A stretch of 24,000 nucleotides of DNA from an uncultured Anaerolineae bacterium (GTDB lineage: Bacteria; Chloroflexota; Anaerolineae; SSC4; Amarolineaceae): the NCBI GenBank assembly GCA_964443225.1, contig CAYUCC010000019.1, positions 1,451 through 25,450 on the forward strand, written 5' to 3'. Positions within the stretch are counted from its first letter, which is position 1. Every line of letters begins with the position of its first letter. The position numbers and the translations under genes were made by a program. This document shows, one piece after another, positions 7,822-19,042 of this stretch. The notes under the pieces were generated by a model. It was not told the DNA's origin and ran no database searches. It saw only the letters and a list, made by a program, of their open reading frames with translations.

Positions 7822-8649
7822 TCACTGGTCGTGCGGCCGCCGGCGGTACAGCGCAAACGCCACGGTGCCATATTCGGCCTGGCGTTCCAGGTCGAGGCCC
7901 TGTGCGGCGAACATGTCGTGAACGTCGGATGCGGGCCAGAAGTGAATACCGCCGGCCGCGGCTGCCTGTTGTGCACTGCGTCCGAGGGGTGTGGGGGCGG
8001 TGAGAAGATGCATGGAGAAAAAAGGTGCGCCTGGTTTGAGGACACGCGCCGCGTCCTGGATAACCAGCGCTGGGATTTTGAACTCATTGAGCGAGCCACC
8101 GCACACCATGCCGTCGATGCTGGCGGTGCGCAGGGGCAGCTGTTCGCCTTCGGCACACAGCAGGTGCACGTTGCCCAGGTTTTCATGGCGAATGCGTCGC
8201 CCGGCCTGCTGCAGCATACGCAGCGAGCTGTCGACGGCAATGATCTCACGTGGGGCCCCGTGCACGCTGGCACTGCGCGCCAGCGAACGCGCATAAAGAC
8301 CATGCGAACAGGCCAGGTCGACAAAGAGACCCGGACCTTCTGGGGCCAGCCAATCGTCGAGCAGCGCCAACTCACGGTCGAAACCGAATGGTTCCCCGCT
8401 GAGCAGCGTCAGGGACCGCCGGCGCCACAGATTTTCGTACCCCCAGGCCACCGGCCAGGTGAAATTGGTCCACTGTGCCGGCGTGCGAAAGTGCGGGCCA
8501 TGCGGCAGCAGGTCCAGAATACCATCGACGACGCGATACTGCGACTGGCACGCACCGCAGCGCACTGTTTCCGGCGCGTACGCCAGACGTTCCCACTGTG
8601 CCTCGCCACACGCCGTACACGTGACCCAGTCCAAAAGTTCAAACGCCAT
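7822..8649 (-). CDS. class I SAM-dependent methyltransferase with an N-terminal CxxC...CxxC zinc-ribbon (Trm112-like) module
   Basis: Zn-ribbon: MAFELLDWVTCTACGE...VRCGACQSQYRVVDGILDLL. Motif I-like VDLACSHGLY, plus a Methyltransf_11-like core. ATG at 8649 chosen. The track ORF to 8811 runs through the repeat element and is probably over-extended. Substrate unknown. Confidence 0.75.
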   Translation of the reverse strand: MAFELLDWVTCTACGEAQWERLAYAPETVRCGACQSQYRVVDGILDLLPHGPHFRTPAQWTNFTWPVAWGYENLWRRRSLTLLSGEPFGFDRELALLDDWLAPEGPGLFVDLACSHGLYARSLARSASVHGAPREIIAVDSSLRMLQQAGRRIRHENLGNVHLLCAEGEQLPLRTASIDGMVCGGSLNEFKIPALVIQDAARVLKPGAPFFSMHLLTAPTPLGRSAQQAAAAGGIHFWPASDVHDMFAAQGLDLERQAEYGTVAFALYRRRPHDQ

Positions 8650-8760
8650 CCCGAGCGCTCCGATCGATCGAAAACATGCTGCGCAACCCGATTGCAGACG
8701 AGTCCATCCGACCCGCTGTCTCTCGCAGGTAATCGGTTCGAGACATACAACTATCGACGT

Positions 8761-8843
8761 AAGGGCTTGTAAAAGAATATCTTCCTGCAAAATGGCCGGA
8801 ATTCGCCGCAAAGCACGGTAAGTTATTCTTTTGCAAGCCCTAA
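8761..8843. repeat. 83-bp hairpin-forming repeat element, copy A (MITE-like or structured RNA)
   Basis: aagggcttgtaaaagaatatcttcc...ggtaagttattcttttgcaagccct forms an imperfect stem of about 24 bp around a loop of about 31 nt. 70 of 83 positions match copy B (17516-17598) in the same orientation. It directly abuts the sigma-factor stop codon (8844-8846). Confidence 0.85.
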
Positions 8844-9473
8844 CTATGCCGCGGCCAGGGCCACCTGGTGCTGCAGCATGTTCGTCAGCGACTTGCGTCC
8901 TCGATGCACCCGCATCTTCATGGCACTCAAGCCAGCCTGCGCTGCCGCCGCCATTTCCTGGTAGCTCAATCCTTCCAATTCACGCTGTACCAGCGCCTGG
9001 CGGTAGGGCTCATCCAGGGCGGCGAGAGCGCTGTGCACCAGCGCAACCTGCTCCGACTGCAGTACCACCTGCTCCGGCGTCTTCGACTGCCAGGAGAACG
9101 GATCTGCGTCCAGCGTCAGCGTTTCACCCAGGTCGGACCACTCGGTGTCCGCCGCCTGTGGCCGCCGCCGCCGCTTTTCCAGGGCATCCAGACAGGCGTT
9201 GACCGCAATCCGGTACATCCACGTGCTGAACCGAGCCCGACCTTCGAAACGACCCAGGGACCGGTAAATCTTGATGAATACTTCCTGCGCCTGATCTTCC
9301 GCTTCCTCGGCGTTACCCATCATCCGCAAACACAACCCGTACACCTTGTTCTGGTAACGCGTCACAAGGATATCGAACGCCTGGCCATAACGCGCCGCGT
9401 CGTCCACAAAGAGCTGAACCAGGGTCTCATCCTCAAGCTGCTGAAGCTCGTTCTGCGCAATTCCGGTTCTCAT
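8844..9473 (-). CDS. ECF-type RNA polymerase sigma-70 family factor (sigma-24 like)
   Basis: Region 2: VYGLCLRMMGNAEEAEDQAQEVFIKIY...FSTWMYRIAVNACLD. Region 4: LSYQEMAAAAQAGLSAMKMRVHRGRKSL. GGAGG lies 6 nt upstream of the ATG. Confidence 0.9.
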   Translation of the reverse strand: MRTGIAQNELQQLEDETLVQLFVDDAARYGQAFDILVTRYQNKVYGLCLRMMGNAEEAEDQAQEVFIKIYRSLGRFEGRARFSTWMYRIAVNACLDALEKRRRRPQAADTEWSDLGETLTLDADPFSWQSKTPEQVVLQSEQVALVHSALAALDEPYRQALVQRELEGLSYQEMAAAAQAGLSAMKMRVHRGRKSLTNMLQHQVALAAA

Positions 9474-16367: not shown

Positions 16368-17339
16368 TTACTCCTCGAACTCGCCCACGAACAGGATCTC
16401 CGGCTCCAGCGTGACACCGAACTGCGCCGCAATCGTGTCTTGGGCCAGGCGGACAGCTGCGACTACGTCACGGGCCCGTGCCCCACCCAGGTTGACCAGG
16501 AAATTGGCATGGATTGGGCTAAACTGGACCTGCCCGACCTGGGTTCCTTTCAATCCCGCCGCTTCGATGAGGCGCCCGGCAAAGTCGCCGGCCGGGTTGC
16601 GAAACATCGAACCGGCACTGGCCTCGGTGGGCTGCGTGGCCCGTCGATGGGCCAAAAATCGTGCCGCCCGTTCGTCGAGTTCGGCGCGTGCCACACGCAG
16701 CAGTCGAAATACGGCGATCAGCACCACCGCCCCCGCCGCCTGGTCATCCTCCGGATACTTCAAGCGGCTGCGCCGGTAGGCGTAGGAAAAGTCGGCTTGC
16801 TGCCACGTGGTGACGCTGCCCAGACCGTCCAACACCTCCGCCTGCCACAGATTGTCGGCGATACTGCCGCCGTGGGCGCCGGCATTGCCAACCACAGCAC
16901 CGCCTACGGTACCGGGCACACTGACGGCCCATTCCAGACCGGCCAACCCTTCACGCACAGCGGTGCGTGCCAACCCGGCCAGGAGCGTCCCCGATTCGGC
17001 CGAGAGCAAAACAGGATCGCCCACCTCACCCGCTTCGTGTACCGCGACCTGGCGGCAGCGGTTTACGATGACCAAACCCCGAAATCCGCCATCCCCCACC
17101 AGGACGTTGCTGCCACCGCCCAACAGCAAGTAGGGAAATTCGCAGGTCCGCGCCAGCCCGACTAAACGAACCAGGTCATCGACACGCTCGACGCTGATCA
17201 GCAGATCAGCCGGACCACCAATCTTGAAGGATGTCAATGGGGCCAAGGGCACGTGCTGGTCGATGATGAATCCGGCCGCCCGCGCCGCTTCAGCGAACTG
17301 TGTCGCGGTCGCGATTTTTGCATGTGGTACAAAAGACAT
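16368..17339 (-). CDS. murB: UDP-N-acetylenolpyruvoylglucosamine reductase
   Basis: LAPLTSFKIGGPADLL, LLLGGGSNVLV, GTVGGAVVGNAGAHG, AGSMFRNP. ATG at 17339 gives MSFVPHAKIA. The track ORF to 17564 is a 5' over-extension that reads through the repeat element. Confidence 0.9.
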   Translation of the reverse strand: MSFVPHAKIATATQFAEAARAAGFIIDQHVPLAPLTSFKIGGPADLLISVERVDDLVRLVGLARTCEFPYLLLGGGSNVLVGDGGFRGLVIVNRCRQVAVHEAGEVGDPVLLSAESGTLLAGLARTAVREGLAGLEWAVSVPGTVGGAVVGNAGAHGGSIADNLWQAEVLDGLGSVTTWQQADFSYAYRRSRLKYPEDDQAAGAVVLIAVFRLLRVARAELDERAARFLAHRRATQPTEASAGSMFRNPAGDFAGRLIEAAGLKGTQVGQVQFSPIHANFLVNLGGARARDVVAAVRLAQDTIAAQFGVTLEPEILFVGEFEE

Positions 17340-17360
17340 TATACCGTAGTCCGTCCAATT

Positions 17361-17375
17361 TGTGCAAATTGCACA
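17361..17375. promoter_or_regulatory. perfect 7-1-7 palindrome TGTGCAA-A-TTGCACA, 22 nt upstream of the murB start
   Basis: Read directly from the sequence. It overlaps a second dyad, CAATTTG-TG-CAAATTG (17357-17372). Operator-like, but no binding protein can be inferred. Confidence 0.4.
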
Positions 17376-17515
17376 GGCGCTGTCAAAGAAAGCACATATG
17401 TTCGATTCGTATACCCGGTCGTCCGGACCTGTCACGTGTCGGATAGTCCGCAGCCTCTGCGGTAGTCCCAATCGTGTGCTCTCGTGCGGGTCCGAACGTG
17501 TGACTATGCGCAACC

Positions 17516-17598
17516 AAGGGCTGGTAAAGGAATAACTTCCAGCAAAATGGCTGGAATTCGTCACAAATCATGGGAAGTTATTCTTTTATCAGCCCTAA
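17516..17598. repeat. 83-bp hairpin-forming repeat element, copy B
   Basis: 84% identical to copy A (8761-8843). The stem AGGGCTGGTAAAGGAATAACTTCC / GGAAGTTATTCTTTTATCAGCCCT is about 24 bp. It overlaps murC codons for LRADKRITSHDL and the TGA stop (17561-17563). Confidence 0.85.
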
Positions 17599-19042
17599 GC
17601 GCATCGAGCAGCTGCTCCCCGATCCGATCACCATCACCGGCGCCCAACGTGATGAGCACGTCACCCCGCTGCAGGTGCGTGGTCAAAACCATCACCGCAG
17701 TCCTCGCATCGGCAACGTACCGTGCATCGTCATGCACCAGCGCCGCGGCCAACGCCTCTCCGTTGACGCCAGGAATTGCGGCATCGCGTGCGGCGTAGAT
17801 CGGCGTCACCAGCACGTGCTGCGCATCCCCAAAGGCGCGGGTAAAATCGTCCCACAGTGCCTGCGTGCGCTGGTACGTGTGGGGTTGAAAAACGACCCAC
17901 ACGGTCCGCATCGGCCACTGCGCACGCGCCGCCGCCAACGTGGTCCGAATTTCGGTGGGGTGATGGGCGTAATCGTCGTAGACGCACACGCCCGCTGCTT
18001 CCCCCTTGAATTCGAACCGCCGCGCGGCCCCCCGGTAATCGGCAAGAATGGGCAGTGCCAGGGTAGGATCGATCCCGAGTTGGCCGACAGCCGCCACTGC
18101 AGCCAGTGCATTGCGCAGGTTGTGCAGTCCCGGCACGTGCAGCCGCAGTTGGCCCAGGTACTGCCCGCTGTACGACACCCGGGCGTCGCAGCCGCCAAAT
18201 TCATTCAGCTGCACCGAATCGGCGTGAAAATCCGCCGCCTCGTCCAGTCCATAGGTCAACACGCTGCCGCCCCGCCCACGGCGCCAATCCGCCAGGGCAC
18301 GGGCACCGGCATCATCATGGCACGCCACCAGCCAGCCGTCCGGACGAATTTGCGCAGCGAATGCCTGGAACGCCGCATCAAAGCTGGCCGGCGTTGGGAA
18401 GCAGTCGGGATGATCCCACTCGACATTCGTGACGACTGCCACCTGCGGGTGGAGCCCAAGGAACATGTGATCGTACTCGTCCGCTTCGATGACGAACAAC
18501 CGGCCCGCGCCGGCCGCCGCACTTCGCCCAAGCGCCCGCACCTGGCTGCCGACGATGTACCCCGGCTGGTGACCCAGGGCTTCGAGTACCGATGCGATCA
18601 TGCCGGTCGTCGTGGTTTTGCCATGGGTGCCGGCTACGGCGATCAGGGTAAAATTGTGCAGCAGTGCACCCAGAAACGCTGCCCGTTTGACTATAGGAAG
18701 GTGGCGTGCGGTCGCGGTTACGACCTCGATGTTGTCGGGGGCGATGGCCGACGAAACCAGCACCAGGTCGGCACCTTCGACGTTTTCAGCCTGATGGCCA
18801 ATCGCGACGTCGATCCCTGCGGCTTGCAGTGCCTCTGTAACCGGGCCGGCGCGCTGGTCGGAACCCGACACGGTGTACCCCTGCTCGTGCAGCACCCAGG
18901 CAATGGCCGACAACCCGGCGCCGCCAATGCCCACCAGGTGAATCCGTACCTGATGCCGCTGCGTCGACGGCCCGCCAGGAACCTGGTGCAGAACAGCCTC
19001 CACCGTGCCCCCGTCCGCCGTGCTCAAACCAACATCACCCAT
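17561..19042 (-). CDS. murC: UDP-N-acetylmuramate--L-alanine ligase
   Basis: IHLVGIGGAGLSAIAWVL, IAVAGTHGKTTTTGM (P-loop), EADEYD, DDYAHHPTEI. The C-terminal 12 codons derive from repeat copy B. Confidence 0.95.
   Translation of the reverse strand: MGDVGLSTADGGTVEAVLHQVPGGPSTQRHQVRIHLVGIGGAGLSAIAWVLHEQGYTVSGSDQRAGPVTEALQAAGIDVAIGHQAENVEGADLVLVSSAIAPDNIEVVTATARHLPIVKRAAFLGALLHNFTLIAVAGTHGKTTTTGMIASVLEALGHQPGYIVGSQVRALGRSAAAGAGRLFVIEADEYDHMFLGLHPQVAVVTNVEWDHPDCFPTPASFDAAFQAFAAQIRPDGWLVACHDDAGARALADWRRGRGGSVLTYGLDEAADFHADSVQLNEFGGCDARVSYSGQYLGQLRLHVPGLHNLRNALAAVAAVGQLGIDPTLALPILADYRGAARRFEFKGEAAGVCVYDDYAHHPTEIRTTLAAARAQWPMRTVWVVFQPHTYQRTQALWDDFTRAFGDAQHVLVTPIYAARDAAIPGVNGEALAAALVHDDARYVADARTAVMVLTTHLQRGDVLITLGAGDGDRIGEQLLDALRADKRITSHDL

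Follow-up and report, generated by a model that had tools for sequence, protein, structure and literature searches.

Proteobacteria, Firmicutes and Cyanobacteria are well known to carry small mobile palindromic repeats; to our knowledge, such repeats have barely been described in the Anaerolineae and the Chloroflexota, which are known mostly from metagenome bins. The Correia or NEMIS elements of Neisseria are small, non-coding MITEs of about 80 to 150 bp, which carry terminal inverted repeats of about 25 bp and form a hairpin as a whole unit; RNase III processing, IHF binding and promoter activity are traits that enter into comparisons with these elements. Rickettsia palindromic elements (RPEs) insert inside protein-coding genes, in which they are typically located internally and in frame, thereby keeping the reading frame open. 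REPs are 20 to 40 bp long, have stems of 5 to 13 bp, carry a GTAG or CGTC tag at one end and do not duplicate their target; in addition, there are descriptions of Y1 transposase genes with long terminal inverted repeats (TIRs) on either side and of TIR repeat families of moderate abundance, and GTAG REP families have been reported in Chloroflexi (PMC3733652). For the IS1031 group of the IS5 family, three nucleotides are recognised as the insertion site (PMC2516522).

The hairpin family described here is new; it is probably a member of the familiar MITE-like class rather than a gene-specific regulatory RNA. It was found in a window of 24,000 nucleotides, i.e., the whole stretch of DNA that was analysed, which is GC-rich (about 60 to 67%) and carries nearly all of its genes on the minus strand. 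The window contains a dcw-type cluster (murC, murB, ddl, ftsQ, ftsA, ftsZ) as well as an ECF sigma factor gene, which is followed by a methyltransferase gene and folate genes. A repeat finder run on the window returned exactly the pair that a first-pass annotation had described as an 83-bp repeat: copy A (8761-8843) and copy B (17516-17598) have the same orientation and are identical at 70 of 83 positions (84%). The gene for the ECF-type sigma factor (8844-9473, minus strand) is intact, and its stop codon at 8844-8846 abuts copy A as had been stated, the element itself starting 3 nt past the stop. Downstream of copy A lies the methyltransferase gene (7822-8649, minus strand), whose ATG at 8649 is 110 nt from the element. 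Copy B has remodelled the 3' end of murC (17561-19042, minus strand) and is followed by murB (16368-17339, minus strand), whose ATG at 17339 is 176 nt away; the two distances agree with the 110 to 180 nt upstream of minus-strand start codons that had been given before. Elsewhere in the window, four tandem copies of a GC-rich unit (...CCCTCACCCTGCGGAGTCCGCACCCCCAGGTGCGGACC...) with a period of 42 to 48 nt and 73 to 87% identity are located at positions 1281-1473, inside a minus-strand ORF (1141-2757); this unit has a short inverted repeat of its own (GTCCGCAC/GTGCGGAC).

Each hairpin copy possesses inverted arms of 24 to 25 nt, which are 88 to 92% complementary according to the repeat finder and correspond to the stem of about 24 bp that had been proposed. 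Fold energies range from -34.5 to -41.8 kcal/mol across copies and strands, with z-scores of -5.3 to -7.8, and were equalled by none of 200 shuffles. The 18-nt loop core occurs twice in the window, where 0.05 occurrences are expected by chance, and the arm pattern occurs four times, where none are expected; all of these occurrences fall within copies A and B. A loop of about 31 nt with a conserved core had also been proposed. The core is indeed conserved, but the loop is not unpaired, since it is partly paired and carries the sequence GAATTC at the dyad; in copy A, this hexamer is located at the exact symmetry centre (8799-8804) within the conserved core GCAAAATGGCCGGAATTCG, and in copy B at 17554-17559. 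The mobile unit is a 78-bp core, GGGC...GCCC, with terminal inverted repeats of 23 bp (GGGCTTGTAAAAGAATAACTTCC). The core of copy A extends from 8763 to 8840 (arms 8763-8785 and 8818-8840) and, together with 3 nt, is the exact gap in the empty alleles described below; that of copy B extends from 17518 to 17595 (arms 17518-17540 and 17573-17595) and is absent from the murC-murB junctions of relatives. Copy A is flanked on both sides by the same trinucleotide, TAA on the plus strand and TTA on the minus strand, at 8760-8762 and 8841-8843, the latter abutting the sigma factor stop codon. The trinucleotides beside copy B, CAA on the plus strand (TTG on the minus strand) at 17515-17517 and TAA (TTA) at 17596-17598, match at two of three positions. 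The GC content of the element region is 44%, compared to about 63 to 67% in the flanks. A six-frame peptide profile of the element gave no match at E <= 10 among 5.8 billion proteins, and all of its frames are short; the element is without coding capacity.

It had further been claimed that weaker homology continues for about 60 nt beyond the hairpin and that the unit is about 150 nt long. This could not be upheld: the local alignment score of the tails from the hairpin to the next start codon was equalled by 126 of 1000 shuffles and that of the first 75 nt of the two tails by 174 of 1000, and a 150-nt extended unit was rejected, since the tails align no better than shuffled sequence. The ATAGT block beside copy B was considered as shared homology and rejected; it is instead a relic of the ancestral murC stop region (TGC GCA TAG TCA), since hairpin-free relatives have TGC GCG TAG TCA/TAA at this position.

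Site A was sampled from Logan contigs encoding the identical sigma protein and, in addition, from contigs anchored in the methyltransferase gene. The filled alleles (window, L117, L119 and L123) read CATAG-TTA-[78 bp]-TTA-CGTCG, and four alleles that are 98.1 to 98.9% identical to the window (L115, L116, L121 and L124) are empty and read CATAG-CTG-CGTCG. In full, the empty allele is ...GCGGCATAG CTG CGTCGATAGTTG..., giving a spacer of 113 nt, and the net difference between filled and empty alleles is 81 bp (78 bp plus 3 nt). The right junctions in the methyltransferase-anchored contigs all agree with the reading from the sigma side. Three contigs (L118, L120 and L122) end exactly at the left junction and one (L139) begins exactly at the right junction, which fits a coexistence of both alleles in those samples, i.e., a branch in the assembly graph. 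Site A is filled or empty among strains that are 98 to 100% identical to the window; copy A segregates as a presence/absence polymorphism within one population. In the more distant genome L107 (GCA_964432105.1), the junction between the sigma factor and the methyltransferase gene is empty, with a spacer of 33 nt. Copy A landed 3 nt past the sigma factor stop codon in the 113-nt spacer, and the insertion is just outside the gene, as the sigma protein retains its full length.

Read on the minus strand, the flanking trinucleotides are TTA/TTA for copy A, ATA/ATA for a full copy in another genome (L062) and TTA/TTG for copy B and its orthologue in L129. In copy A and L062, the flanks match within a copy and differ between copies, which is the behaviour of a 3-bp target-site duplication. 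However, in all four empty alleles of site A that were sampled, CTG stands in place of the TTA that borders the filled allele on either side, a difference of two transitions in three nucleotides, although the surrounding flanks differ by only 1 to 2%. Simple duplication of such an empty site would thus not yield the flanking TTA repeat. The CTG anomaly may reflect a rare TTA variant of the target, imprecise excision or a mechanism other than simple duplication. Alternative boundaries, a TA or 6-bp duplication, a microhomology deletion, P-nucleotide excision footprints, gap deamination and palindrome-templated correction were all considered as explanations of CTG versus TTA...TTA, and none was convincing. 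A motif of the approximate form CTGCG(N1-3)RTAGT adjoins both hairpin sites (17400-17515 and 8740-8760 of the window, minus strand), the empty site A being CTGCGTCGATAGTT, and recurs in the murC-murB spacers of hairpin-free relatives (CTGCGTGTAGTAAGCG, CTGCGTGTAGTTCGCG, CTGCGTATAGTGCGCG, GGTCGTGTAGTTAACC): four times in L108 (11460-11690), twice in L114 (6400-6500) and also in L107 (3995-4030). The motif could represent a REP-like repeat of the GTAG type or a sequence context that is preferred as a target.

To judge from the homologues of its MurC protein, the organism belongs among Anaerolineae-like Chloroflexota. The junction between murC and murB is without the element in L106, L107 and the loci from L108 to L114. 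In L106, which belongs to the MAG CAZXQZ01 and encodes a MurC protein that is 71% identical to that of the window, only 27 nt separate the two genes. The MurC proteins of relatives end in ...GEQLLDALHCA*, ...ETLDCA* or ...ARLQVA*, compared to ...GEQLLDAL-RADKRITSHDL* in the window, where the element-encoded C-terminal tail RADKRITSHDL and its TGA stop codon are located at 17561-17596 on the minus strand. A relic of the original gene end (GT TGC GCA TAG, 17504-17514, minus strand), including the old TAG stop codon at 17504-17506, is now located downstream of the insertion. In-silico removal of the 78-bp core and 3 nt restores an in-frame MurC end, ...GEQLLDAL(S/G)CA*, which aligns with the ends of L106 and L107 (TGC GCG TAG). 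Copy B is therefore an insertion into murC, since this deletion restores the type of end found in the relatives. It landed three codons before the murC stop, thereby exchanging the conserved ...(G/H/D)CA end for an element-encoded tail of 12 residues that ends at a new stop codon. Such a tail is present in all six members of the 90% MurC cluster, in the form of RADKRITSHDL, RAGKITTSRDL or RASKRITPRDL, so that the insertion of copy B is fixed in the sampled species. To judge from these variants, the tail evolves freely among strains.

A collection of genomes was scanned with a core of 17 specified bases, which returned at least 94 stretches, mostly chance matches; among the matches listed, three are real loci, all of them in one Anaerolineae MAG (CAZXQZ01, GCA_964642445.1), which, at the MurC identity given above, is a different species from that of the window. 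The locus L062 (5153-5235) is a full copy with 94% identity to copy A. It is bordered by a small ORF on one side and, on the other, by an unrelated gene for a secreted protein; a gene for a large SARP-like regulator is nearby. The loci L028 (6929-6980) and L061 (1094-1141) are left-half copies, which retain the left arm and the core as far as ...GAATTCGCCGC, beyond which similarity to the element is lost. Both half copies keep the central mini-hairpin, and their breakpoints are within 2 nt of each other, just past GAATTCGCCGC; the shared breakpoint suggests either that breakage of the palindrome is directed to its centre or that the left end is a modular unit. Neither a right arm nor a transposase was found within 9 kb of the half copy in L028, and the idea that it is the left end of a larger transposon is ruled out for the 9 kb available. 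The documented copies amount to three full and two half sites, and the element inserts as a discrete increment of 81 bp at different loci in different genomes. A metagenome scan with a 21-nt core gave seven loci, all of which are matches of 19 to 26 nt only, with no arms and no hairpin; the ATG (MAGIR...) shared by these loci was considered as a transposase start and rejected, since the ORFs are short or unrelated and have no Rfam match. A viral scan and a plasmid BLAST search gave no matches, and no autonomous partner IS with the same ends was found, a weak negative in view of the very limited search space. Furthermore, no curated RNA family of Rfam matches the hairpin: neither the window nor the related loci had a match at gathering score, and a permissive search gave only noise with E > 5.

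All Logan short-read contigs that enter one of the two hairpins break off at the central GAATTC or only a few bases from it (L117, L119, L123, L128 and L105 end there; L125, L126, L131 and L138 start there). It would be unsafe to infer a high copy number from such breaks, as they may equally result from coverage loss at the strong hairpin; repeat branching is the other possible cause. As the element breaks short-read assemblies, copies of the family would be under-represented in MAGs.

Comparisons between copies give some insight into the evolution of the stem. The base pairs that had been singled out as covarying were read directly and are correct: pair 8:75 is T:A in copy A and G:C in copy B, and pairs 20:63 and 24:59 are mismatched in copy A and Watson-Crick pairs in copy B. 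The conclusion drawn from them stands in part, as the two copies alone are not significant and the covariation is suggestive only when an orthologous copy is added. This orthologue of copy B (B2) is found in L129, a strain that is about 5% diverged. Copy B and L129 show 8 differences in 84 nt (9.5%), compared to 4.8 to 5.2% in the flanks; together with the variation of the MurC tail among strains, this indicates that the primary sequence is only weakly constrained. These differences include two compensatory double changes (G:C to A:U and U:A to C:G) and two further changes that repair mismatches. In an alignment of four sequences, 94% of the cells pair and one pair is found in three different Watson-Crick states. 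Shuffling the columns gave a covariation score at least as high in 7 of 500 trials; this control can be passed by related sequences that have no structure at all. One-sided changes affect seven variable stem pairs, every one of which is G·T on the plus strand, with no A·C pair (p of about 0.016 in a sign test); this count rests on few and partly shared, i.e., non-independent, events. In each of the three full copies, the plus strand runs antisense to the neighbouring genes, and it also folds better, with -41.5 and -41.8 kcal/mol versus -38.7 and -34.5 kcal/mol for the sense RNA. The strand asymmetry of the stem variants is suggestive, and G·T pairs on the antisense strand combined with the better fold of the plus strand argue against a role of the long hairpin in the sense mRNA. 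The stem pattern may result from maintenance of the hairpin on one DNA strand, from an antisense RNA or from templated correction within the quasi-palindrome. The region beside copy B is hypervariable as well: the first 50 nt downstream differ from L129 at 9 positions and the next 160 nt at 2 (window 17380-17500, L129 1388-1440), and the patch holds a small CCGCAG-AGG-CTGCGG hairpin with inverted GGACTA motifs.

Taken together, the hairpin is probably, and we say this with good confidence, a miniature non-coding mobile palindromic repeat of the MITE type. The Correia-like MITE that the first-pass annotation had named as one candidate is supported by the small size of 78 bp, the inverted ends, the 3-nt flanking repeats, the presence/absence polymorphism at one site, the empty orthologous sites and the copies at unrelated loci of another genome; the documented copies are two in the 24-kb window and three (one full and two half copies) in the MAG CAZXQZ01. 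The element would be mobilised in trans by a transposase that recognises its inverted ends, the likeliest being a DDE enzyme that cuts with a 3-bp stagger, such as those of the IS5 family (IS1031 group) or of the PIF/Harbinger type; such an enzyme is suspected because of the 3-nt flanking repeat and the GG-initial ends. This mechanism does not account for the two compensatory double substitutions and the 7:0 G·T bias in vertically inherited copies, since such changes are not expected if the transposase binds each end in double-stranded form. They would fit a hairpin of the REP-like or 'TIR repeat' type that is moved in single-stranded form, with the hairpin of one strand as the substrate of a HUH/Y1 transposase (RAYT- or TIRYT-like, of the IS200/IS605 lineage) and without a true target-site duplication. 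Stem pairing is indeed kept between copy B and L129, the 7:0 asymmetry is indicative of a single-stranded hairpin formed by one of the two strands, the empty site CTG differs from the repeated TTA...TTA in a way that simple DDE duplication would not produce, and both Y1 genes with long TIRs and TIR repeat families, as well as GTAG REPs of Chloroflexi, have been described (PMC3733652). However, the ends of the element have no GTAG or CGTC tag, its 78 bp are far above the 20 to 40 bp of REPs, no fixed target tetranucleotide precedes it in the five junctions read, no Y1 transposase was seen near the loci examined, the asymmetry reaches a p of only about 0.016 with few and partly non-independent events, and trinucleotides that match within copies and differ between them (TTA/TTA, ATA/ATA) are the signature of a duplication; we therefore regard movement as single-stranded DNA as unlikely. 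Similarly doubtful is the idea that the antisense-strand hairpin is itself the unit under selection, being moved or maintained in single-stranded form by an enzyme of the HUH/Y1 type or an undescribed one; if true, it would jointly explain the compensatory changes, the 7:0 excess of G·T pairs and the CTG/TTA...TTA junction. The fallback of the first-pass annotation, a decaying segmental duplication within the region, could draw on the presence of only two copies with the same orientation in the 24-kb window. It is effectively refuted and has a negligible probability, since the boundaries are sharp and identical in both copies with no homology extending into the flanks, related copies are found at unrelated loci in another species, and copy A is polymorphic among strains by the exact length of the element.

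A functional structured RNA or cis-regulatory hairpin that is retained for its own activity has to be weighed against the MITE-like reading as well; it might act as a 3'-end stabiliser or a partial terminator of the upstream gene, serve as a leader for the gene downstream, or give rise to a small antisense RNA. The hairpin is very stable, all three full copies (A, B and L062) are located just past a gene end in the same orientation relative to co-directional neighbours, and the stem shows compensatory changes and G·U-compatible variation. In addition, a terminator scan flagged an inner 7-bp hairpin followed by a T-rich run on the sense strand of copy B. No promoter-like or terminator-like site was found at copy A, and the long stem does not have the properties of an intrinsic terminator, as it is AT-rich and followed by CUUACG or CUUGGU rather than by a U-tract. 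The small RNA or leader that had been named as a further candidate is not supported, since the same genes occur without the element in relatives and sister strains, copy B is inserted into the end of murC with the conserved promoter-like block of murB downstream of it, and Rfam gave no match. Sister strains, as well as relatives in which the gene order is identical, lack the element at these intergenic sites, which shows that it is dispensable for the adjacent genes, and a leader or attenuator role for the methyltransferase gene or murB is accordingly unsupported. Furthermore, the element is also found between unrelated genes, divergence is higher inside the element than in the flanks, and the strand with G·U-compatible pairs is antisense to the mRNAs, whereas the sense RNA has A·C mismatches and a weaker fold. 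A functional RNA is thus very improbable. An element-borne promoter was rejected because the spacing of TTTACA and ATAGT is inconsistent between the copies and the scan finds none, and a sigma-54 promoter reading of GGCC-N4-TGCA because of its wrong spacing.

A promoter-like block is conserved upstream of murB, downstream of copy B, and is common to the hairpin-free relatives. About 100 nt upstream of murB are near-invariant across relatives whose MurC proteins are only about 70% identical (GAACATATGTGCTTTGTTTGACAGC...ATTTGCACGAATTGGAC...GGTATAATG.CTTTTGTACCACATGCAAAAATCGC; window 17337-17420, minus strand; L107 4030-4130, L108 11620-11700, L114 6490-6580). Within the block lie a TTGACA box, a TGTGCAATTTGCACA palindrome and a promoter-like TGCACA-17-TATAAT site, whose TATAAT overlaps the annotated ATG of murB; on this basis, the true start of murB may be in question, or the arrangement may be leaderless. 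As for the MITE-like element itself, both copies in the window are probably co-transcribed with the upstream gene, thereby adding a long hairpin at the 3' end; any effect of this predicted hairpin on termination or mRNA stability would be hypothetical.

With the Correia and NEMIS elements, the new family shares the size class, the TIR hairpin, gene-adjacent insertion with probable co-transcription and presence/absence polymorphism among strains. However, the sequences are unrelated, the host is Chloroflexota/Anaerolineae-like, the flanking repeat has 3 nt here and is TA in Correia elements, and the documented copy number is tiny. The 3-nt flanking direct repeat is reminiscent of the IS5 family (IS1031 and IS427 groups) and of PIF/Harbinger 'Tourist-like' MITEs, and the ends, GG(G)C followed by a T/A-rich stretch, presumably resemble IS5-family and Tourist ends as well, which we take as a lead only. 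In contrast to these groups, the repeats TTA, ATA and TTG do not all fit TNA/TWA, the sampled empty site is CTG and not TTA, and no transposase partner was found. As in RPEs, element-encoded residues were added to an essential protein, in this case 12 residues at the C-terminus of MurC, which are fixed in the species; however, copy B is located at the extreme 3' end and not internally, and sequences and host clades are unrelated. The element further resembles the REP/BIME/REPtron group as an extragenic palindromic repeat that is mostly found downstream of coding regions and has G·T pairs in its stems, but it does not have the size and tag of a REP, as it comprises 78 bp with 23-bp arms and GGGC...GCCC ends without a tag.

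The hairpin provides a clean case of such a repeat: one allele is segregating, one fixed insertion has rewritten the C-terminal end of MurC, an essential cell-wall enzyme, and a second species carries copies as well. The practical value lies in genome annotation, in which hairpins of this kind should not be mistaken for leaders or terminators of adjacent genes. The evolutionary interest of the family is modest and would be higher if the strand-specific maintenance of pairing is real.
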